This document shows, in pieces, positions 40,912 through 49,936 of a stretch of 64,000 bases of DNA; the stretch's first letter is position 1; each line of letters starts with the position of its first letter. The notes under the pieces are model-generated. The model was not told the DNA's origin. It was given only the letters and a program-made list of their open reading frames with translations, and ran no database searches. The position numbers and the translations under genes were made by a program. The stretch is from a virus, in the IMG/VR virus record IMGVR_UViG_3300032246_001180, positions 1-64,000 of that record; one strand, given 5' to 3'.

Positions 40912-41465
40912 AACAAAAATTCATTAACGCTTACATGGATGTTGCCCGCCGTTTTGCACAGTTATCTAGTGCAAGACGATTAAAGGTGGGTGCCATCATT
41001 GTCAAAGACGATAGGATTATTTCTATTGGTTACAATGGTATGCCTGCCGGTTGGGACAATAATTGTGAACATAAAGAATATATGGATCCAGATGCTGGTG
41101 GTTGGTTAAGTCCGGATGAAATTGAACAACGATGGCCTAACCAAGAACAACAATTACCAAAAGAATCAAATATTTGGAAACGATATTCTCTTAAAACCAA
41201 AGATGAAGTCATTCATGCCGAAGCTAATGCGATTGCCAAACTTGCTAAGTGTACCGAATCAGGGGACGGATCCACCATGTTCCTGACCCATGCACCGTGC
41301 ATACATTGTGCCAAACAGATTTATACCGCAGGCATTAAAACGGTATATTTTGGTTCGGCATATAGGGACGATATAGGCTTGACATTTCTGAAAAAGTGTG
41401 ATATACTAGTACATCAAGTGAATAGAGATGTTTCACCTGGTGAAATTGACACTATCGCTAAATAG
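40908..41465 (+). CDS. dCMP deaminase
   Basis: VGAIIVKD; GYNGMP; HAEANA; PCIHC. Confidence 0.9.
   Translation: MKQKFINAYMDVARRFAQLSSARRLKVGAIIVKDDRIISIGYNGMPAGWDNNCEHKEYMDPDAGGWLSPDEIEQRWPNQEQQLPKESNIWKRYSLKTKDEVIHAEANAIAKLAKCTESGDGSTMFLTHAPCIHCAKQIYTAGIKTVYFGSAYRDDIGLTFLKKCDILVHQVNRDVSPGEIDTIAK
41379..41407 (+). promoter_or_regulatory. Sigma70-type promoter inside the 3' end of dCMP deaminase
   Basis: TTGACA-17-TATACT with extended -10 TG. Confidence 0.65.
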
Positions 41466-41515
41466 AAAAGGGTGTCAGTCGTACTATAGTCTTAATTGTG
41501 CAAGGATAAGGCAAA

Positions 41516-42085
41516 ATGAAACTGAGCATAATTGGTTGTCCTGATAAAAAAAGATTTCGTCCGTATATCAAAAGAGCAGCATTGTTTTATGCTGGAGAAT
41601 TGCTTACGCCGAAAATGAGAGAAAACGTTTATATAAAAATTAAGTTTAATAGTAAGATTGATGCTTTTGGTTATGCCTCTGTAGAAGATTATAATGATAG
41701 CGGTAAACCTAGAGATTTTTTAATTGAGTTGTATCCGCATCTAGCTGCATATGATATATTGAAAACTCTAGCACATGAAATGGTTCATGTAAAGCAATAT
41801 GCATATTCAGAAATGAATGAAGAAGGAAATAGATGGAAAGGCAATCGTGTGGATTTATCAACGATTGATTACTGGACTGAACCGTGGGAAATAGAAGCAC
41901 ACGGAATGGAACCAGGATTATTTACAAAGTTTGCAATCAAGGAAAAGTTGTGGGAAGTTTTTGACTATGTGCAGAATCCAGATAGTCCAATAGTACCTGA
42001 AATGTTAGGATTTAAAGAAGATAAGTCGGAAAATATTGTAATCACAACATTAGAAACAGAAGATAACACCTATATACAATTATGA
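41516..42085 (+). CDS. Zincin-like metallopeptidase
   Basis: TLAHEMVHVKQ (HExxH) and PWEIEA. Confidence 0.7.
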   Translation: MKLSIIGCPDKKRFRPYIKRAALFYAGELLTPKMRENVYIKIKFNSKIDAFGYASVEDYNDSGKPRDFLIELYPHLAAYDILKTLAHEMVHVKQYAYSEMNEEGNRWKGNRVDLSTIDYWTEPWEIEAHGMEPGLFTKFAIKEKLWEVFDYVQNPDSPIVPEMLGFKEDKSENIVITTLETEDNTYIQL

Positions 42086-42156
42086 AAAATACAAATTACA
42101 CATCACTACCAACAAATTTATGGCTCTTGAGTTTAGCCAGAATGGGGTTCGTGTAA
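42082..42156 (+). CDS. Putative Leu-rich attenuator leader peptide (24 aa)
   Basis: MKNTNYTSLPTNLWLLSLARMGFV; ATGA overlap with upstream gene; 3' end complementary to terminator arm. Confidence 0.6.
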   Translation: MKNTNYTSLPTNLWLLSLARMGFV

Positions 42157-42181
42157 ACAATTCGTTGAGAATTACATACAG

Positions 42182-42212
42182 AACCCTAGACTAAACATCT
42201 AGGGTTTTTTTT
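42182..42212 (+). terminator. Intrinsic terminator of attenuator 1
   Basis: AACCCTAGA-ctaaaca-TCTAGGGTT within an 8-T tract. Confidence 0.82.
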
Positions 42213-42226
42213 CGTTTATGTTTTTT

Positions 42227-42303
42227 GCCCCGATGACGGAATTGGTATACGTGCTGGTCTTAGAAACCAGATTTTGCGAGTTCGACTCTCGCTTGGGGCA
42301 CCA
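42227..42303 (+). tRNA. tRNA-Leu (anticodon TAG), short variable region
   Basis: GCCCCGA/TTGGGGC acceptor; CTGGT-ct TAG aa-ACCAG; TTCGA; CCA. Confidence 0.85.
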
Positions 42304-42371
42304 ATAAAAAAGTCTTGGACACGCAGACTTTAAAGAGAAGTGGGAGTAGGTGGAAACCCTACACCGAATTT

Positions 42372-42454
42372 GCGGGTATGGTGAAATAGGTAAACACAGC
42401 AGACTTAAAATCTGCCGCTTCGGCTTGCCGGTTCGATTCTGGCTACCCGCACCA
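42372..42454 (+). tRNA. tRNA-Leu (TAA)
   Basis: GCGGGTA/TACCCGC; GCAGA-ct TAA aa-TCTGC; long variable arm; CCA. Confidence 0.9.
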
Positions 42455-42512
42455 AGTTTGTTGTTTTTTTGCAACAGTTGTTGTTTTTTTATTAAATTTT
42501 TATGAAAAGTGC

Positions 42513-42541
42513 TTGACATTTAAGAAAATATCCTATATACT
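42513..42541 (+). promoter_or_regulatory. Sigma70 promoter with predicted +1 at the ATG of leader 2
   Basis: TTGACA-17-TATACT; AT-rich upstream region; ATG begins 7 nt after the -10. Confidence 0.8.
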
Positions 42542-42547
42542 ATCACT

Positions 42548-42691
42548 ATGTTAAATTTTAAATCACACTCCTTTTTTAGAACGCCTGATGCCATGTCAAC
42601 AACATGGCAGGCTAACTATCGCTCACCGAAATGTGAGAATCCAGGTAGTATTGTCGGCAAGGGGTTTTGTGATGGAGATGGATGCTGTTAA
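42548..42691 (+). CDS. Putative all-20-amino-acid attenuator leader peptide (47 aa)
   Basis: MLNFKSHSFFRTPDAMSTTWQANYRSPKCENPGSIVGKGFCDGDGCC; contains antiterminator strand GGGTTTTGTG. Confidence 0.62.
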   Translation: MLNFKSHSFFRTPDAMSTTWQANYRSPKCENPGSIVGKGFCDGDGCC

Positions 42692-42718
42692 GTAACTAAT
42701 CTCAAAGAATACAAACAC

Positions 42719-42756
42719 AAAACCCTAGACCTAAAAAATCTAGGGTTTTTTGTTTT
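42719..42756 (+). terminator. Intrinsic terminator of attenuator 2
   Basis: AAAACCCTAGA-cctaaaaaa-TCTAGGGTTTT then TTGTTTT. Confidence 0.82.
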
Positions 42757-42784
42757 CGTTCTTACGAAAATTGCTCTTTAAAAA
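42754..42784 (+). promoter_or_regulatory. rrn-type boxB-like hairpin and boxA
   Basis: TTTCGT-tctt-ACGAAA then TGCTCTTTAAAAA (E. coli rrn boxA is TGCTCTTTAACA). Confidence 0.65.
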
Positions 42785-42799
42785 CTTATATTGCTTTGT

Positions 42800-42873
42800 T
42801 GGGACATTGTGTAGTGGTAGCACAGCAGACTTTGACTCTGTTAGTCTAGGTTCGATTCCTAGTGTCCCTGCCA
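42800..42873 (+). tRNA. tRNA-Gln (TTG)
   Basis: GCAGA-ct TTG ac-TCTGT; GGTTCGATTCC; CCA. Confidence 0.9.
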
Positions 42874-42878
42874 AAAAT

Positions 42879-42970
42879 GGAAGGTAATGCAGCGGGGTTG
42901 GTCCTGCGACTGGCCTTGAAAACCAGGTTCTGAGAAATCGGATGGGGTTCGACTCCTCTGCCTTCCACCA
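42879..42970 (+). tRNA. tRNA-Ser (TGA)
   Basis: GGAAGGT/GCCTTCC; ct TGA aa; long variable arm; CCA. Confidence 0.88.
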
Positions 42971-43095
42971 TATAAAAGCTCTTTGTGTAACTACAATGGA
43001 ACACCGAAATACTTGTCAATGTCGACCACGAACAAGGACCGGCCATGAAGAAGGGGTTATGTTCGGTTCAATTCCGTCAGAGAGCTTCTATATGG
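42968..43095 (+). ncRNA. Stem-enclosed structured RNA A (unknown)
   Basis: CCATATAAAAGCTCTTTG / CAGAGAGCTTCTATATGG 18-bp stem; internal CGG-TTCAATT-CCG T-loop. Confidence 0.55.
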
Positions 43096-43182
43096 GAGGG
43101 TTGGGTGAGTGGTTAAACCAGCGGTTTGCTAAACCGTCATCCAGAAATGGGTGCATCAGTTCGAATCTGATACCCTCCGCCA
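43095..43182 (+). tRNA. tRNA-Ser (GCT)
   Basis: GGAGGGT/ACCCTCC; GCGGT-tt GCT aa-ACCGT; long arm; CCA. Confidence 0.9.
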
Positions 43183-43187
43183 ATTTT

Positions 43188-43262
43188 CTCGCCATCGTTC
43201 AACGGATAGGACAGCATTCTTCTAAAGTGCGAATGGGGGTTCGATTCCCTCTGGCGAGGCCA
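43188..43262 (+). tRNA. tRNA-Arg (TCT)
   Basis: CTCGCCA/TGGCGAG; GCATT-ct TCT aa-AGTGC. Confidence 0.88.
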
Positions 43263-43268
43263 ATTTGT

Positions 43269-43345
43269 GTGGGCGTGCAGCTGAATGGTTAGGCACCGGA
43301 TTGCAAATCCGTATTATGCAGGTTCGAATCCTGTCGCCCACTCCA
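43269..43345 (+). tRNA. tRNA-Cys (GCA)
   Basis: GTGGGCG/CGCCCAC; U73; tt GCA aa. Confidence 0.9.
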
Positions 43346-43382
43346 AGACTGTTGTATTTTTACAACACATCGAAAATAGTGC

Positions 43383-43452
43383 TTGACTATTTCTGTGGTT
43401 CGTGTAGAATACGTTCTATCGATTGAGAAATTAATCGATTCTTTAAAAATTT
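43383..43452 (+). promoter_or_regulatory. Internal sigma70 promoter with hairpin and boxA-like element
   Basis: TTGACT-16-TAGAAT; ATCGATT..AATCGAT hairpin; TTCTTTAAAAATTT. Confidence 0.6.
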
Positions 43453-43467
43453 GATGTAGTTTTTGAT

Positions 43468-43543
43468 GCACCTATCGTCTAACGGTTAGGACGCTGCCCT
43501 TTCAAGGCGGAAACGTAGGGTTCGATTCCCTCTAGGTGTACCA
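43468..43543 (+). tRNA. tRNA-Glu (TTC)
   Basis: GCACCTA/TAGGTGT; CTGCC-ct TTC aa-GGCGG. Confidence 0.88.
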
Positions 43544-43758
43544 TACTAAAACATATTGGGTTACCAACTCCAGTAGGTACCTAGGAGAGATAATATCTGT
43601 GGCCGCACAGACTCTCGCTAGTAGTACATGAAGCAATCCGACTGTGCTGGAATCAGTTGAACCGTAATGTGGAAGTTGTCTTATCGGTAGACGAAACCGT
43701 GAGAAGCCAGATGAAGTTCTGGAACGACAACGACACCCCAATGTGTTTTAGTATGGTA
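43539..43758 (+). ncRNA. Stem-enclosed structured RNA B (unknown, about 220 nt)
   Basis: 22-bp closing stem TACCATACTAAAACATATTGGG / CCCAATGTGTTTTAGTATGGTA; several internal hairpins. Confidence 0.6.
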
Positions 43759-43780
43759 TTTTTTAAACAAGGAGAAAGTA

Positions 43781-43822
43781 ATGAAACGAAAATTAAAACC
43801 TCGAAAGATTATGGGGGTATAA
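43781..43822 (+). CDS. Lys/Arg-rich 13-aa micro-ORF overlapping tRNA-Lys
   Basis: AAGGAGA SD; MKRKLKPRKIMGV. Confidence 0.45.
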   Translation: MKRKLKPRKIMGV

Positions 43823-43887
43823 CTTAACGGCTAAAGTAGTAGGCTTTTAACCTATTAATCAGAGTTCGATTCTCTGTACCCCTACCA
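43813..43887 (+). tRNA. tRNA-Lys (TTT)
   Basis: GGGGGTA/TACCCCT; GTAGG-ct TTT aa-CCTAT. Confidence 0.9.
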
Positions 43888-43982
43888 TATAAAAACACTC
43901 TAAACTGGACGCAGGTTCTATGAAGCAAGACCTCGGGGTCATGTCCGAGAAGGTGTGGAGAATGAGAGTGTTTCTATATGGT
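43884..43982 (+). ncRNA. Stem-enclosed structured RNA C (unknown)
   Basis: ACCATATAAAAACACTCT / AGAGTGTTTCTATATGGT 18-bp stem with one A-C mismatch. Confidence 0.55.
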
Positions 43983-44054
43983 GATGTAGCACAACGGTAG
44001 TGCATCTGCTTCATACGCAGGAGGTTAGTGGCTCGATTCCACTCATCACCACCA
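43980..44054 (+). tRNA. tRNA-Met (CAT), probably elongator
   Basis: GGTGATG/CATCACC; tt CAT ac loop. Confidence 0.8.
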
Positions 44055-44060
44055 GATTTT

Positions 44061-44135
44061 GCCCCGTTAATATAACGGCTATTATGCCCGCCTGTCCAGC
44101 GGAGAACAGGAGTTCGACTCTCCTACGGGGCGCCA
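44061..44135 (+). tRNA. tRNA-Asp (GTC)
   Basis: GCCCCGT/ACGGGGC; G73; ct GTC ca. Confidence 0.87.
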
Positions 44136-44142
44136 AGTTTAT

Positions 44143-44217
44143 TCCAGAGTAGCACAGCGGTAGTGCAGTTGACTGTTAATCAATTGGTCGTAGGTTCGAT
44201 CCCTGCCTCTGGAGCCA
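44143..44217 (+). tRNA. tRNA-Asn (GTT)
   Basis: TCCAGAG/CTCTGGA; ct GTT aa. Confidence 0.92.
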
Positions 44218-44230
44218 GTTAGTAAGTTTA

Positions 44231-44319
44231 GGAAGTGTGCGCTGAATTGGTTGAAGGCAACGGACTGTAAATCCGCCACATAAGAAACATTGTAGGTTCG
44301 AATCCTACCACTTCCACCA
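44231..44319 (+). tRNA. tRNA-Tyr (GTA)
   Basis: GGAAGTG/CACTTCC; ct GTA aa; long variable region. Confidence 0.9.
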
Positions 44320-44323
44320 AATA

Positions 44324-44397
44324 GCCTCTTTAGTTTAATGGTAGAACTCCGCTTTTACACAGCGGGTACGGCAGTTCGATTCTGTCAAGAGGCACCA
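44324..44397 (+). tRNA. tRNA-Val (TAC)
   Basis: GCCTCTT/AAGAGGC; CCGCT-tt TAC ac-AGCGG. Confidence 0.88.
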
Positions 44398-44399
44398 AT

Positions 44400-44475
44400 G
44401 CCAAGATAGCTCAGTTGGTAGAGCACCTGTCTGAAGAACAGGGTGTGGTTGGTTCGATCCCAACTCTTGGTGCCA
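44400..44475 (+). tRNA. tRNA-Phe (GAA)
   Basis: GCCAAGA/TCTTGGT; CCTGT-ct GAA ga-ACAGG. Confidence 0.9.
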
Positions 44476-44483
44476 AATTTTTT

Positions 44484-44557
44484 GCCCTATTAGTTAAATG
44501 GTAGAACATCGGTTTTGTAATCCGAGGACGGGAGTTCGATTCTCTCATGGGGCACCA
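44484..44557 (+). tRNA. tRNA-Thr (TGT)
   Basis: GCCCTAT/ATGGGGC; tt TGT aa. Confidence 0.9.
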
Positions 44558-44571
44558 TTTAAAGGAATACG

Positions 44572-44817
44572 ATGTTAGATTATATCGTAACATTTTTAGC
44601 AATATTTTTACTTGATGTAGTGTACACTTATTATTTACGTTGTGTACAAAATAACAATGTCTTAGGTGCCAGTATATGGTCTATCGCTTGTTATTTGTTA
44701 GGCAGTTTAGCAGTAATTAATTATACAACAAATCATTGGTTGTTATTGCCAGCAATAGCAGGTGCTTTTTGTGGCACTTATGTGGGTATGACAATTAAAA
44801 AGAATAACGGAGTATAG
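44572..44817 (+). CDS. Small membrane protein (about 3 TM segments)
   Basis: AAAGGA SD; hydrophobic segments; stop falls inside tRNA-Pro. Confidence 0.6.
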   Translation: MLDYIVTFLAIFLLDVVYTYYLRCVQNNNVLGASIWSIACYLLGSLAVINYTTNHWLLLPAIAGAFCGTYVGMTIKKNNGV

Positions 44818-44884
44818 CACAGCCAGATAGTGCGCTCGGTTTGGGACCGAGAGGTCGCAGGTTTGATTCCTGCTACTCCGACCA
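44808..44884 (+). tRNA. tRNA-Pro (TGG)
   Basis: CGGAGTA/TACTCCG; CTCGG-tt TGG ga-CCGAG. Confidence 0.9.
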
Positions 44885-44889
44885 TTTAA

Positions 44890-44964
44890 GGGGGATTGGC
44901 GTAATTGGGAACGCAGTAGCTTTGCAAGCTTCAGTCGGGAGTTCGAATCTCCCATTCTCCACCA
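44890..44964 (+). tRNA. tRNA-Ala (TGC)
   Basis: GGGGGAT/ATTCTCC with G3-U70; tt TGC aa. Confidence 0.9.
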
Positions 44965-45021
44965 TTTTAAGTTTACAATAAAGTTTTTTAAGTTTACAAT
45001 AAAGTTTTTTAAGTTTACAAT
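44965..45021. repeat. 21-bp tandem repeat, about 2.7 copies
   Basis: Unit TTTTTTAAGTTTACAATAAAG; GTTTACAAT at 44971, 44992, 45013. Confidence 0.9.
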
Positions 45022-45096
45022 CGGTCCTTAGTAAAATGAATATTACACAGCGCTACGAACGCTGAAGTGGGAGTTTGATTCTCTCAGGACCGGCCA
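45022..45096 (+). tRNA. tRNA-Arg (ACG)
   Basis: CGGTCCT/AGGACCG; CAGCG-ct ACG aa-CGCTG. Confidence 0.85.
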
Positions 45097-45098
45097 TC

Positions 45099-45172
45099 AC
45101 TCGCATAGCTCAAAGGTAGAGCACTCGCTTGATAAGCGATAGACGAAGGATCGTTACCTTCTGTGAGTACCA
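45099..45172 (+). tRNA. tRNA-Ile (GAT), atypical T-loop
   Basis: ACTCGCA/TGTGAGT; tt GAT aa; T-loop ATCGTTA. Confidence 0.8.
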
Positions 45173-45175
45173 TGT

Positions 45176-45250
45176 ATCTCGCTGGTGTTAACGGCAGCAT
45201 AGCGGTCTCCAAAACCGAAGGACGGGGTTCGAATCCCTGGCGGGGTGCCA
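45176..45250 (+). tRNA. tRNA-Trp (CCA)
   Basis: ct CCA aa; GGTTCGAATCC; G73; CCA. Confidence 0.88.
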
Positions 45251-45272
45251 ATTATAATAAAAAGGTGTAATC

Positions 45273-45746
45273 ATGCGTAAATTAAATTTAGATGAAGTCA
45301 TTTCGTTTATCGAACAACAATCTCCAGAAAGTAAAGTTTATATTGGTTGTGATTCAGAGCGAGTTATTGTTGACGGCGTACCTTATGCTGATTATGTTCT
45401 TGCAATTGTAGTACACATCAATGGCAACAATGGTTGCAAATTATTTGGTGAAGTTAGTAGAGAAAGAGATTACGACCAGAAAAGAAACAAGCCTAGATAT
45501 AGGTTGATGAATGAAGTTTACAAGGTTTCAGAATTATATTTAAACCTTGTTAAAGTTTTAGTTGACCGTGATATTCAAGTTCACCTAGATATTAATCCAG
45601 ATGAAATGCACGGTTCATCTTGTGTTATCAATGAAGCGATTGGCTATATTAAAGGAACTTGCAATGTAATACCTCTGGTTAAACCAGAAGCGTTTGCGGC
45701 CTCTTATGCAGCTGACCGTTTTAAAGGACTAAAAAAGGCAGCTTGA
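45273..45746 (+). CDS. RNase H-like YkuK (DUF458) family protein
   Basis: YIGCDS; RLMNEV; VHLDIN; KPEAFAASYAADR. Confidence 0.75.
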   Translation: MRKLNLDEVISFIEQQSPESKVYIGCDSERVIVDGVPYADYVLAIVVHINGNNGCKLFGEVSRERDYDQKRNKPRYRLMNEVYKVSELYLNLVKVLVDRDIQVHLDINPDEMHGSSCVINEAIGYIKGTCNVIPLVKPEAFAASYAADRFKGLKKAA

Positions 45747-45763
45747 ACATATGAGAGATTACA

Positions 45764-46210
45764 ATGATATCAACAATAAAAACAATAACAGAACAATTTC
45801 TTTCTCTTTTACTTGATGATCCAGTAAGACCATCAATACCACATCTCGACCGTGTAGGTGAGAACAAGGATATTTTTGTTTTTCGGGGAGAAGATGATTC
45901 TATAAAAGCAATTACTTGCGTTAGTTACCAAGTAACTGTACCAACATCAGAGGCGGAATTATTTGAAAGATGTTCCACTCCGACTGTGGCAGTATTCTAT
46001 ACAATTTGGAGTTATGCGCCAGGTGCTGGTCGCCAATTGATATTCGATGCTGTACAATACATAAAAGAAAATAGAAAAGATATTAACAGATTTGTAACAC
46101 TTTCACCTAAAACTCATATGGCACGAAAGTTCCATACAAGAAACGGTGCAATGGTGTTTCGTGATAATCCTGAAACGGTGAATTACGAATACAAGAATGT
46201 AGTTCTTTAA
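45764..46210 (+). CDS. Hypothetical protein, possible GNAT-like fold
   Basis: DDPVRP; FYTIWSY..GAGRQLI; VTLSPKT.MARKFH.RNGA. Confidence 0.5.
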   Translation: MISTIKTITEQFLSLLLDDPVRPSIPHLDRVGENKDIFVFRGEDDSIKAITCVSYQVTVPTSEAELFERCSTPTVAVFYTIWSYAPGAGRQLIFDAVQYIKENRKDINRFVTLSPKTHMARKFHTRNGAMVFRDNPETVNYEYKNVVL

Positions 46211-46284
46211 GCGGGATTAGTTTAATGGTCAAACGAAACCTTGCCAAGGTTTAGTCAGGAGTTCGATTCTCCTATCCCGCTCCA
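46211..46284 (+). tRNA. tRNA-Gly (GCC)
   Basis: GCGGGAT/ATCCCGC; U73; tt GCC aa. Confidence 0.9.
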
Positions 46285-46366
46285 TTTAAGAGTGCAGGCT
46301 CTTTTTAAATCCTGCCTTTGTGTGGTACCGAACATCGCTACTGCTTGGATAAGCATCGGTACATTT

Positions 46367-46440
46367 GCAGGGTTAGTTTAATGGTAAAACTCCATCCTTC
46401 CAAGTTGGTGTCGTGAGTTCGATTCTCACACTCTGCTCCA
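46367..46440 (+). tRNA. tRNA-Gly (TCC)
   Basis: GCAGGGT/ACTCTGC; U73; ct TCC aa. Confidence 0.9.
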
Positions 46441-46446
46441 GTTTAT

Positions 46447-46521
46447 GGAGAAATTAGTTTAGTGGTAAAACCACGGGTTGTGATTCCGTTATCACGGGTT
46501 CGATTCCCGTATTTCTCCCCA
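46447..46521 (+). tRNA. tRNA-His (GTG)
   Basis: G-1:C73 pair; tt GTG at. Confidence 0.9.
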
Positions 46522-46525
46522 ATTT

Positions 46526-46600
46526 GGGCCAATAGCTTAATGGTAAAGCAATCGACTCATAATCGATTGAGTCTTGGTTCAATTCCAAGTTGGCCCACCA
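46526..46600 (+). tRNA. tRNA with CAT anticodon, probably Ile2 (lysidine)
   Basis: GGGCCAA/TTGGCCC; ATCGA-ct CAT aa-TCGAT; Ile2 identity inferred. Confidence 0.7.
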
Positions 46601-46618
46601 AGTTTGCCATAGATAGTG

Positions 46619-46647
46619 TTGACAAAGCAATATAAGTATAGTAGAAT
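46619..46647 (+). promoter_or_regulatory. Sigma70 promoter
   Basis: TTGACA-17-TAGAAT. Confidence 0.72.
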
Positions 46648-46655
46648 GATTAAAT

Positions 46656-46722
46656 GCGGTGTGTGATAGCACGACATTCGGTTCCCCCGATTGTTATCTG
46701 AGCAAAGCAGACCACCGCTCCA
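46656..46722 (+). ncRNA. Minimal 67-nt tRNA-Gly-like RNA
   Basis: GCGGTG/CACCGC-T-CCA; mini D arm; central TCC loop; non-canonical T arm. Confidence 0.6.
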
Positions 46723-46746
46723 TTTTATATATTAAAGGCATCTGTA

Positions 46747-46992
46747 ATGATTTTAAAACCAACTGCATCAAATGTTCATATCACCAGAGTTGCCGCAGAG
46801 AAGCAAACTAAATCTGGTATTATTTTAAAAAACACGGAAGAACCTGACAAAGCAAAAGTTGAATCAATAGGTAAAGACGTAACCGACCTTGAAGTTGGTG
46901 ATGTTGTTTTGGTTAACTGGAATAAAGCAATCAAAGTTGATGTTGATTCATACATCATTCCGGAATCAGACATTATTATGGTATTCGAATAA
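46747..46992 (+). CDS. GroES-like co-chaperonin
   Basis: LKPTASNV; KQTKSGIIL; VESIGKDV..LEVGDVVL; ESDII. Confidence 0.8.
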   Translation: MILKPTASNVHITRVAAEKQTKSGIILKNTEEPDKAKVESIGKDVTDLEVGDVVLVNWNKAIKVDVDSYIIPESDIIMVFE

Positions 46993-46997
46993 TTTAT

Positions 46998-47071
46998 AGC
47001 GGATTAGTGAAACGGTATCACAGAGGACTCATAATCCTCAGTTCCTAGTTCGAATCTAGGGTCCGCAACCA
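46998..47071 (+). tRNA. tRNA-Met (CAT), initiator-like
   Basis: A1/A72 mismatch; 3' CCGCAACCA like fMet; GAGGA-ct CAT aa-TCCTC. Confidence 0.72.
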
Positions 47072-47087
47072 ACAAGAAAGGTATATT

Positions 47088-47399
47088 ATGCAAGTGTTAG
47101 CATTGAAATTAGTTACAGGTGAAGACGTTCTTGGAGAACTAGAATCACAATCAGAAACAGAATATGTTATTTGTAATCCAGTAGGTATCTCTATTGTTCG
47201 TGGTAAAGACGGACAACCCAATGTTGGATTCTCACCCTTTCCATTACACTCAGAACAAAAGTCCGGCACAACACTTGCCTTGGCAAAGAAAAATGTAGTA
47301 TACTCTTATACTCCTGCGGAAGATTTTGTTTCAAACTACAATCAAATTTTTGGTTCTGGCATCGTTCTTCCGCCAACTAAATCATTGATTACAGGTTAA
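47088..47399 (+). CDS. Hypothetical Sm-like protein
   Basis: LKLVTGEDVLGE; YNQIFGSGIVLP. Confidence 0.6.
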   Translation: MQVLALKLVTGEDVLGELESQSETEYVICNPVGISIVRGKDGQPNVGFSPFPLHSEQKSGTTLALAKKNVVYSYTPAEDFVSNYNQIFGSGIVLPPTKSLITG

Positions 47400-47401
47400 A
47401 C

Positions 47402-49936
47402 TTGAGTACATTTTACACAAACGTTCAAAGCTTCGGCAATAACATACTGTATCGAGGCATCAAAGACGGCAAGAGAGTAAAAGAGAGGGTCGAGTATTCG
47501 CCTTCTCTTTATATTCCTTCCAAACGTATTACTAATTTTACCACACTAGAAGGCGACTATCTCGACCAAAAGATTTTTGGTTCGATTCGTGAAGCTCGTG
47601 ATTACATCAAACAGTTCGACAAAGTTCAAAATGCTCCGAAGATTTATGGTCAAACTCGGTTTGAATATGCGTTTATTGCGGATGAGAATCGAGGTATGGT
47701 GGATTATGACCAAGATAAAATCTCGGTTGCGGTAGTTGATATTGAAGTTGGTTCAGAGAATGGATTTCCTGATCCATATGAAGCGAACGAACCTATCACA
47801 GCTATCTGTATCAAATACTTGAACGGTGAAACCTATGTCTTTGGTTGCGGCATTTATGAAACTCAAGGCAACGAAATTTATGTCAAGTGTAGAGATGAAT
47901 GGACACTCTGTAAGCGTTTTATGGAATTGTGGACTAAGAAATGTCCCGATGTACTTACTGGTTGGAACACTAAGTTCTTTGATGAACCTTATATCATAAA
48001 TCGTTTCCGTAAAATTCTTGGTGAAGATGAAACCAAGAAATTGTCGCCATGGAATTATATTGGTGAGCGTGAAACTTTCGTCAACAATCGCCGTATGATT
48101 GCTTACAATTTGATGGGTGTTGAATCACTCGACTACATCGAACTATACAAATGGTATGCGCCAGGTGGTAAATCACAAGAATCATATCGACTAGATGCCA
48201 TTGCTCAAGTCGAATTGGGTGAAGGCAAAATTTCATATGACGAATACGATAATCTACATTCACTCTATCGTTTGAACTTTCAAAAGTTTATTGAGTATAA
48301 CATCAAAGACGTTGAACTCATTATCAAACTAGAAGAAAAACTTAAACTCATTGAACTGGCAATTACTCTTGCGTATGATACCAAGACAAATTATCAAGAT
48401 GTATTTGCACAAACTCGTATGTGGGATTCAATGACATATGCCTATCTTTTTGAGAAAGGCATTATTGTTCCACCAAGAGTTACTAAAGAGAAAGATTCCG
48501 CATTTGAAGGTGCATATGTAAAGATTCCACAAGTTGGTTTACATAATTGGGTTGCATCGTTTGACTTGAATAGTTTGTATCCTCATTTGATGATGCAATA
48601 TAATATCTCACCTGAAACATTGATTGAACCACAAGACTATACGGATGAAATGCGTAATGTTCTTTCACAAGGTGTATCTGTTGAAAAACTCTTGAAAAGA
48701 CAAATTGACACTTCAAGTTTGAAGAATGTAACTGTAACTCCTAATGGACAATTCTTCCGTACAGACATTCAAGGCTTCTTACCTAAGATGATGGAAGAAA
48801 TGTATACTGACCGTAGCAAATTCAAGAAGATGATGTTGCGAGCAAAGCAGACGTATGAAGATGAAACAGACGAATCGAAAAAATATGAAATTGAAAAACG
48901 AATTGCCAAGTATAACAACATACAACTTGCAAAGAAGGTTTCTCTTAATTCTGCTTATGGTGCTCTTGGTAGCCAGTATTTCCGCTTTTATGATTTGCGA
49001 ATGGCTCTTGGCGTTACTTCTGCTGGCCAGTTGTCTATTCGGTGGATTGAAAATAAAATAAATGAATACATGAACAAACTTCTCGGTACTGAAAGTGATT
49101 ATGTAATTGCATCTGATACCGATTCAATCTATCTCCGTATGGGTGAATTGGTCAATAAATTCATCAAAGATACCTCAGACAAACAAAAGGTAATCTCACT
49201 CATGGATAAAATCTGTGAAGAAAAGATACAACCTTATATTGACAAATCGTATCAAGAACTGGCTGATTATGTTCACGCATATGACCAGAAGATGCAGATG
49301 AAGCGTGAAGGTCTATCTGACAAAGGTATTTGGACTGCCAAGAAACGATACATTCTAAATGTATATAATAATGAAGGCGTTCAATACAACGAACCACAGA
49401 TGAAGGTAATGGGTCTAGAGATGATTAAATCATCAACACCATCATCTATTCGTGAGAAGATGAAGAAGGCTATTGAATTAATGGTGAACGGAACACAAGA
49501 AGATATTCATACATTCATTGCCGATTTCAGGAAAGAATTCAAGACGTTACCCGCTGAAGAAATTTCTTTTCCTCGGGGTTTGAACGGGCTAAATACCTAT
49601 TCCGATGCGGCGACCTTATACAAAAAAGGTACACCAATTCATGTTAAAGGTGCGATATTATATAATCATTACCTTAAACAGAAAAACTTAACCAAGAAGT
49701 ACCCGCTCATACAAGAAGGTGAGAAGTTAAAATTCACCTATCTGAAAATGCCTAATCCATTTAAAGATACTGTCATTTCGTATCCACAACGATTACCAAA
49801 AGAATTTGAATTGCAAGAGTATATCGATTATGATATGCAGTTTGATAAGGCCTTTTTAGAACCAATCAAAGTAATTTTGGACTGTATGGGTTGGTCAACA
49901 GAAAAAACTAGTTCTATAGAGGATTTCTTCACATGA
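47402..49936 (+). CDS. gp43: Family B DNA polymerase gp43
   Basis: DIEV exonuclease; SFDLNSLYP; KVSLNSAYG; SDTDS; KKRY. Confidence 0.97.
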   Translation: MSTFYTNVQSFGNNILYRGIKDGKRVKERVEYSPSLYIPSKRITNFTTLEGDYLDQKIFGSIREARDYIKQFDKVQNAPKIYGQTRFEYAFIADENRGMVDYDQDKISVAVVDIEVGSENGFPDPYEANEPITAICIKYLNGETYVFGCGIYETQGNEIYVKCRDEWTLCKRFMELWTKKCPDVLTGWNTKFFDEPYIINRFRKILGEDETKKLSPWNYIGERETFVNNRRMIAYNLMGVESLDYIELYKWYAPGGKSQESYRLDAIAQVELGEGKISYDEYDNLHSLYRLNFQKFIEYNIKDVELIIKLEEKLKLIELAITLAYDTKTNYQDVFAQTRMWDSMTYAYLFEKGIIVPPRVTKEKDSAFEGAYVKIPQVGLHNWVASFDLNSLYPHLMMQYNISPETLIEPQDYTDEMRNVLSQGVSVEKLLKRQIDTSSLKNVTVTPNGQFFRTDIQGFLPKMMEEMYTDRSKFKKMMLRAKQTYEDETDESKKYEIEKRIAKYNNIQLAKKVSLNSAYGALGSQYFRFYDLRMALGVTSAGQLSIRWIENKINEYMNKLLGTESDYVIASDTDSIYLRMGELVNKFIKDTSDKQKVISLMDKICEEKIQPYIDKSYQELADYVHAYDQKMQMKREGLSDKGIWTAKKRYILNVYNNEGVQYNEPQMKVMGLEMIKSSTPSSIREKMKKAIELMVNGTQEDIHTFIADFRKEFKTLPAEEISFPRGLNGLNTYSDAATLYKKGTPIHVKGAILYNHYLKQKNLTKKYPLIQEGEKLKFTYLKMPNPFKDTVISYPQRLPKEFELQEYIDYDMQFDKAFLEPIKVILDCMGWSTEKTSSIEDFFT

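Follow-up and report, generated by a model that had tools for sequence, protein, structure and literature searches.

Genomic setting and anatomy of the leader region

The DNA analysed here (the window) comprises the first 64 kb of a 168 kb IMG/VR virus record. Among the products encoded on the window are a family-B DNA polymerase, a tail sheath, a major head protein and an SbcC-like nuclease subunit, a gene set that was read as that of a T4-like myovirus, the phage itself being uncultured. Twenty-four tRNA genes were identified with ARAGORN between 42227 and 47071, on the + strand throughout. Two additional tRNA genes missed by this program were identified with Rfam, at 42879-42966 (best score tRNA-Sec-like, 36.8 bits) and at 43271-43343 (43.2 bits). 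These were read as tRNA-Ser(UGA) and tRNA-Cys(GCA), respectively, with the anticodons taken by eye from the letters, and once both are counted the phage tRNAs cover all 20 amino acids. Promoter-like sites were found inside the array at 43383, 44972/44993 and 46619. Long structured spacers are present between tRNA genes at 42968-43095 and 43539-43758, and neither contains a credible ORF.

Directly upstream of tRNA-Gln lies a unit consisting of a promoter (P1), a short leader ORF and an intrinsic terminator, with a smaller sister unit further upstream. The features of this region are as follows.

42082..42208, + strand: sister unit, with a 24-codon leader rich in Leu (5 Leu) and a separate terminator, before two tRNA-Leu genes
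42513..42541, + strand: promoter P1, with -35 TTGACA (42513-18), a 17-nt spacer and -10 TATACT (42536-41)
42548..42691, + strand: leader ORF of 47 codons plus stop, with its ATG at the predicted +1
42562..42576, + strand: Region 1, codons 5-10, 5' strand of the anti-antiterminator helix 1:2
42615..42649, + strand: central hairpin, homologue of the family-conserved UAUCGC...GCGAUA
42661..42672, + strand: Region 2, codons 39-42, 5' strand of the antiterminator, which mimics the right arm of the terminator
42689..42691, + strand: leader stop codon, 27 nt ahead of the terminator stem
42716..42729, + strand: Region 3, the 3' strand of the antiterminator (42716-25) overlapping the left arm of the terminator (42719-29)
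42719..42756, + strand: intrinsic terminator with an 11-bp stem, a 9-nt loop and a T-run
42752..42784, + strand: small hairpin and boxA-like word (42772-84), behind the terminator and ahead of tRNA-Gln
42800..43343, + strand: tRNA genes before the next promoter, for Gln, Ser(UGA), Ser(GCU), Arg(UCU) and Cys(GCA)

Promoter P1 was found where the original prediction had placed it, as TTGACA-17-TATACT. It gives a match of 11/12, is the top promoter-like site across 41400-47500 and has conserved homologues in relatives. Seven bases past the -10 hexamer, at the canonical +1 position, lies the A of the start codon (ATG, 42548), and the mRNA is thus predicted to be leaderless or nearly so, the start site being inferred. 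The extended -10 word of P1 has a single other copy in the 168-kb genome, within a long ORF; it is thus no general promoter motif of this genome, and P1 is not simply the standard late promoter of the phage.

The ORF that follows had been described as a 47-codon frame containing all 20 amino acids within codons 1-36. This was confirmed, with Val being the last type to appear, at codon 36. Both serine boxes (TCA, TCC, AGT) and both arginine boxes (AGA, CGC) are sampled, as had been noted. No amino acid is represented by a run of codons, high diversity being found instead; there is only one Leu codon, and no tRNA-Leu gene lies behind this leader. The chance of all 20 amino acids occurring, which the original prediction had proposed to compute, is approximately 2e-3 for 36 codons, rising to 2e-2 for 47, given the composition of the phage proteome. 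The use of many G/C-ending codons, also described earlier, held in part: GC3 is 0.35 in the leader compared to 0.25 in the genome, but this excess alone was not significant (P=0.10). The codons of the leader were found to be rarer than synonymous recoding predicts (P=0.0075). Taken alone, the window is thus only suggestive, being moderately unlikely by chance, and it is the comparative data that render the case solid.

The terminator stem is formed by 42719-29 with 42739-49, with the T-run starting at 42746. The inverted repeat at 42719-42749 was listed under the - strand only, and the T-run on the + strand was read from the letters. The 10-mers GGGTTTTGTG (42662-71) and CACAAAACCC (42716-25) are exact reverse complements, and the latter has 7 nt in common with the left arm of the terminator; the complementarity and overlap on which the original prediction rested are therefore present in full. 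When the ORF was shuffled with its dinucleotides preserved, 0.13% of the shuffles gave a duplex of equal strength with the terminator flank, and the leader transcript folds far below its shuffles (z=-5.0). In the minimum-energy fold, Region 1, in the 5' part of the ORF, is paired with the Region 2 10-mer. The stop codon, said to lie about 18 nt past the antiterminator strand, was measured at 17 nt, and tRNA-Gln starts at 42800 as reported, 44 nt past the terminator.

Known RNA families were searched for with Rfam. A T-box riboswitch, with its specifier loop and the T-box sequence that binds the acceptor end of a tRNA, was not matched in a scan of 41000-48000 (E<=1). A weak match to Thr_leader (RF00506) was obtained at 42685-42754, and membership of this family was rejected as the score of 29.7 bits is below the gathering score of 55 and the match is confined to the terminator. 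No Rfam family reached threshold on the leader RNA.

Between the terminator and the first tRNA gene, a boxA-like word was observed behind a small hairpin (42752-42784), and a similar arrangement occurs at 43411-43452, after the internal promoter at 43383 (TGCTCTTTAAAAA, TTCTTTAAAAA). We take the word at 42772-84 to resemble the boxA of rrn operons, a likeness only. A near-identical word was found ahead of the first tRNA gene in most relatives, often behind a second promoter.

Homologous units and covarying pairings in related phages

Relatives were found through the upstream gene, which encodes a protein of 189 aa; eighty metagenomic loci were fetched in this manner and scans for DNA patterns added more. 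Approximately forty distinct versions of the unit (promoter, short ORF and terminator) were identified among metagenomic T4-like phages, always directly upstream of the tRNA array and on the same strand. No cultured phage was found to carry the unit, as DNA and protein searches of 50,697 GenBank phage records returned only tRNA-Gln or noise. A profile search of 5.8 billion proteins returned 12 unnamed small ORFs and no annotated family, and a few gene callers had called the leader ORF as a hypothetical protein. All of the comparative statistics given below treat related phages as partly independent.

As the original prediction had anticipated for homologous loci, an open ORF of variable sequence was retained upstream of the tRNA arrays. 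It is open in all of the approximately forty versions, at lengths of 30-47 codons, with the other two frames of the leader RNA containing means of 1.9 and 3.7 stops. Three kinds of start signal were identified that differ by lineage, namely an ATG 6-7 nt past the -10 hexamer (the type found in the window), a GGAG 7-8 nt ahead of a GTG or TTG, and an A-rich stretch ahead of a GTG or ATG, and one of these was always present. The retention of the frame despite this exchange of start signals is the strongest sequence-level sign that the leader is translated. Substitutions by codon position (64/58/82, p=0.10) provide a weak coding signature, and it seems to be the residue set that is conserved, and not the sequence of the peptide. 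The distance from the stop codon to the terminator stem is 23-31 nt in all units, with the extended antiterminator ending a median of 4.5 nt before the stop; the 17 nt that separate Region 2 from the stop in the window are further than in most relatives. Many relatives possess a second promoter and a boxA-like word between the terminator and the tRNA genes. In the L073 clade, the terminator lies 7-17 nt from the first tRNA gene without a second promoter.

In most of the closest relatives as judged by the upstream gene (L006-L027, e.g. L012:4540-4620), a different element occupies the slot behind that gene. Here, a strong promoter leads immediately into a conserved RNA of ~75 nt, which begins ATGCGG and ends CCGCTCCA, and which looks tRNA-like in having a paired 5'/3' stem and a CCA end. 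At most of these loci, a small basic ORF lies behind this RNA, with the tRNA genes next.

The pairings of the unit were compared across its versions. The best duplex between the ORF and the 5' flank of the terminator (taken as the 17-23 nt bordering and entering the left arm of the terminator) was always found at the 3' end of the ORF, at -11 to -23 kcal/mol. Cognate Regions 2 and 3 were found to pair better than swapped ones among 13 terminator types (sum -208 vs -149 +/- 11, p ~1e-5), and paired changes in both regions were seen between the close relatives L084 and L103, as well as in L053, L078, L083 and L204. RNAalifold, applied to a MAFFT alignment of the whole unit, recovered the terminator and nothing else, and for this reason structures from single sequences were projected onto unfitted alignments and the pairs counted. 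For helix 2:3, 79% of cells were paired, compared to 24-68% when the partner was slid, and its covariation score was reached by none of 500 shuffles (0/500). The terminator was paired in 89% of cells and displayed compensatory changes (35 units). As helices 2:3 and 3:4 occupy the same alignment columns, the two folds are mutually exclusive. The covariation of antiterminator and terminator pairs in homologues, which had been put forward as a check, was thus obtained. The mutually exclusive layout attributed to this region is likewise supported, with a terminator, an overlapping antiterminator and an ORF with a credible start all being present; translation of that ORF is inferred.

The remaining helices are supported to differing degrees. 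A helix between codons 3-10 and Region 2 was formed in single-sequence folds of nearly all units, and 73% of its cells were paired in the unfitted alignment compared to 32-55% when slid; the permutation of duplex energies was not significant (p=0.25, z ~-0.6). The sequence-based support for helix 1:2 must therefore be described as mixed, with folds and pair counts in its favour and the duplex permutation not. The central hairpin was paired in 69% of cells (27-41% slid) and carries an A-U in place of a G-C pair in the L073 clade; it is possibly a pause hairpin. This hairpin dictates the most conserved residues of the peptide, so that much of the peptide core is dictated by the RNA.

A block of 52 nt (42704-42755), covering Region 3 and the terminator with its 9-nt loop, was observed to be 94-100% identical between phages (L047, L051, L063 and others) in which the neighbouring 189-aa protein is only ~50% identical. 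This degree of identity exceeds what pairing needs, and an added constraint is therefore possible, for instance a site bound by a protein or a role of the RNA in trans.

Amino-acid composition of the leaders and the tRNA genes behind them

All 20 amino acids were found in 20 of the 36 distinct leader peptides (30-47 aa), with at least 19 in 29 of the 36; near-complete coverage is accordingly retained in ORFs of variable sequence, as had been proposed. The mean number of distinct amino acids among these peptides is 19.2, compared to a random expectation of ~16, under which a complete set would arise with P ~2e-3. Permutation of the residues in each column of the alignment left 2.8 complete peptides on average, with a maximum of 10 in 20,000 trials. 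With conserved columns fixed, 0.3-0.7 of 14 clade representatives were expected to be complete and 9/14 were observed to be so, these representatives not being fully independent. The best control is the comparison with the other frames of the same RNA, as it is internal: the read frame encodes 18.9 distinct residues and the other two 15.3 each, and in 37/38 units the highest diversity is that of the read frame. On the tree of the units, completeness spans paths of approximately one substitution per site or more, and all nine leaders with 19 residues are single tips, six of them beside complete relatives (five with a complete leader as the nearest row) and three on isolated long branches. Such tip-only losses of completeness are the pattern expected under purifying selection against loss.

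It was also considered whether the amino acid missing from main leaders with 19 of the 20 corresponds to a missing tRNA. This was rejected, as no match was found; L154 has no Gln in its leader and yet possesses tRNA-Gln, and L204 has no Cys and yet possesses tRNA-Cys.

The sister unit of the window begins with a leader at 42082-42156, whose start overlaps the stop of the upstream gene (ATGA) and which contains 5 Leu codons drawn from both Leu boxes. Its terminator lies at 42180-42208, the pairing of its Region 2 with the terminator flank reaches -12.2 kcal/mol, and it is followed by exactly tRNA-Leu(UAG) and tRNA-Leu(UAA), in a span to 42454. Homologous Leu-rich leaders ahead of tRNA-Leu were identified in L018/L205 and L020/L203. 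Among 17 distinct short leaders, the three located before tRNA-Leu contain 5-6 Leu codons and the other 14 contain 1-2. Residues with a cognate tRNA in the adjacent block numbered 127 over the 17 leaders, compared to 92 +/- 7 when blocks were shuffled among leaders (P<1e-5), and 99 compared to 80 +/- 5 with the Leu-type units excluded (P=1e-4). Twelve amino acids are found in short leaders and vary in tRNA presence; for all of these except Asn (2.60 with the tRNA present vs 2.58), hence for 11, the count of the residue was clearly higher when its tRNA was present. Shared ancestry inflates these figures, the direction of which is consistent. The match between short leaders and the adjacent tRNA blocks supports the reading of these units as sensors of tRNA supply.

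A probable translation-dependent attenuator of tRNA genes: model, alternatives and significance

The feature is real and conserved, and its anatomy, the co-variation of its pairings and the frame-specific diversity of its amino acids were observed directly. That the element is a translation-dependent attenuator is considered highly likely. A more specific reading, in which a ribosome-mediated attenuator with a pan-amino-acid leader raises read-through from P1 into the tRNA genes when decoding is slow, is regarded as probable with some reserve. No expression data are available, and the translation of the leader, the start and termination of transcription, the direction of the response, its physiological trigger and the link to anticodon nucleases are inferred.

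Under this reading, the RNA would begin at P1, at or next to the ATG of the 47-codon leader. During fast translation, the lead ribosome would cover Region 2 and its extension while the polymerase makes regions 3 and 4, allowing the terminator to form and yielding a transcript of ~205 nt that ends at ~42752. Should a scarce, uncharged or cleaved tRNA hold up the ribosome at an earlier point of the leader, Region 2 would be left free to pair with Region 3, in which case no terminator would form and the polymerase would proceed into tRNA-Gln and beyond. In the absence of a ribosome, helix 1:2 would probably sequester Region 2, with termination as the predicted outcome. The ribosome footprint was assumed to reach from ~12 nt upstream to ~15 nt downstream of the P site, on which basis a ribosome at the stop codon leaves a linker too short for helix 2:3. 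As almost all amino acids and many rare codons are represented in the leader, it would report general decoding capacity and not the supply of one amino acid. In the window, the switch would directly gate the tRNAs for Gln, Ser, Ser, Arg and Cys, and in P1 transcripts only; the attenuator is bypassed by internal promoters in the window and by the second, post-terminator promoter in many relatives.

The original prediction held that stalling at any missing tRNA would induce read-through, which proved too strong. An A-site stall within ~5 codons of Region 2 should mask Region 2 itself, and Trp, Val, His, Ala or Gly are often encoded in or next to it, where a stall should favour termination. By the footprint rule, the inducing stretch of 19-34 codons holds 16-19 amino-acid types per leader, where 12-15 were expected, so that induction is predicted for a shortage of most tRNAs and not for the rest, whose amino acids are encoded in or next to the antiterminator strand. 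The leader is therefore a broad sampler and not strictly a complete one. With these qualifications, the interpretation given in the original prediction is supported.

Other explanations for the unit must be weighed against this. It is conceivable, though unlikely, that a true translation-coupled attenuator is present that senses bulk translation only (ribosome availability, leaderless initiation or the coupling of ribosome and polymerase), with the amino-acid set being a side effect. This explanation would accommodate the frequent placement of set-completing amino acids within or beside Region 2 (outside the inducing stretch), the many residues dictated by the central hairpin and Region 2, and the failure of the missing amino acid of main leaders to track a missing tRNA. 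It does not account for a diversity that is specific to the read frame (18.9 vs 15.3), that lasts over more than one substitution per site with losses only at tips, and that remains above expectation even with conserved columns fixed, nor for short sister leaders that match the tRNA blocks adjacent to them.

The unit could also be a small gene in its own right, or a small RNA of dual function, that has a promoter and terminator of its own and only happens to lie next to the tRNA genes; it would act in trans, as a micro-protein or as the ~205-nt RNA, with read-through being incidental. A precedent exists in Sinorhizobium, for which trans roles of an attenuator-derived small RNA and a leader peptide have been described (PMC7968998). 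The separate promoter between terminator and tRNA genes in many relatives would suit such a gene, as would the calling of the ORF as a hypothetical protein by a few gene callers, and the identity of the 52-nt block of Region 3 and terminator (94-100%, compared to ~50% for the neighbouring protein) hints at an added constraint. Nevertheless, the 3' end of the ORF changes together with the left arm of the terminator in a pairing that excludes the terminator, which is of no use to a plain gene; moreover, the unit always lies directly upstream of tRNA genes on the same strand, selection at the peptide level is weak, and the terminator of the L073 clade is 7-17 nt from the first tRNA gene with no second promoter, which leaves this explanation improbable. 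Still harder to sustain is a non-coding structured leader RNA, whether an element of processing or stability or an unknown riboswitch, in which the open frame is accidental. Folding below shuffles (z=-5.0), the conservation of helices and the weak third-position excess are all compatible with it, but the frame is open in ~40 divergent versions, with means of 1.9 and 3.7 stops in the other frames, and is kept while lineages switch between a leaderless ATG and a Shine-Dalgarno with GTG/TTG. In addition, no Rfam family was matched at threshold. This last possibility is regarded as very remote.

Returning to a ribosome-mediated attenuator, the main and short leaders may together represent modular 'test-translation' attenuators, in which the leader of each tRNA block mirrors the tRNAs behind it, such that the phage autoregulates its tRNA supply and could also activate this supply in response to the depletion, degradation or cleavage of host tRNAs by tRNA-targeting defences. 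This broader proposal is tentative, and is regarded as nearly as likely as not. Sister leaders before smaller tRNA blocks would be composed to match those blocks, as in Leu-rich leaders before tRNA-Leu and leaders containing Ala, Ser or Pro before those tRNAs, and the all-20 leader would be the limiting case for a near-complete array.

The unit resembles the leaders trpL, hisL, leuL, thrL and pheL, with a short promoter-proximal ORF, a terminator before the regulated genes and, by inference, a fold set by the position of the ribosome, and shares with the attenuators of enterobacterial amino-acid operons a layout of four segments with the mutually exclusive pairings 2:3 and 3:4, the support for a corresponding 1:2 pairing being mixed. 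Unlike trpL-type leaders, the phage leader does not repeat the codons of any one amino acid in a run and instead encodes nearly every amino acid, mostly once or a few times; its ORF takes in everything from region 1 to region 2 and has its end behind the latter. The phage element is also viral, targets tRNAs and not biosynthetic enzymes, and has a predicted leaderless start in several lineages. Multivalent attenuation of ilvGMEDA and ilvBN (Ile, Leu, Val) is similar in that one leader responds to several aminoacyl-tRNAs, but involves three related amino acids and clustered codon repeats in comparison to the 16-20 amino acids of the phage leaders. The T-box of Firmicutes likewise couples a shortage of charged tRNA to antitermination upstream of genes of the translation apparatus; however, it binds uncharged tRNA directly and has no ORF. 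In having a boxA-like word after the terminator and, in many relatives, a second promoter, the phage region recalls the tandem promoters and boxA antitermination of rrn operons, although the rrn system makes the polymerase resistant to termination without a leader-peptide switch, and the boxA-like word of the phage lies downstream of the attenuator.

Genes for tRNAs are known to be controlled at their promoters, through growth rate and the stringent response. A full-text literature search found no published case, cellular or viral, of tRNA genes placed behind a leader-peptide attenuator, and the statement of the original prediction that none was known for phage tRNA operons agrees with the outcome of this search. 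If the switch works as read here, a textbook mechanism would be extended to a new class of target, namely tRNA genes, with a new design of sensor in which the leader samples the whole amino-acid alphabet and does not repeat one codon. The element is compact (~250 nt), and a portable reporter of decoding capacity could be made from it. Phage tRNAs have been described to evade host defences that cleave tRNAs (PMC10264068, PMC11555353, PMC11464382). An attenuator of this kind would account for the way in which large phages set the dose of their tRNA arrays, and would provide a direct and testable link between the expression of phage tRNAs and the tRNA-cleaving defences of their hosts.
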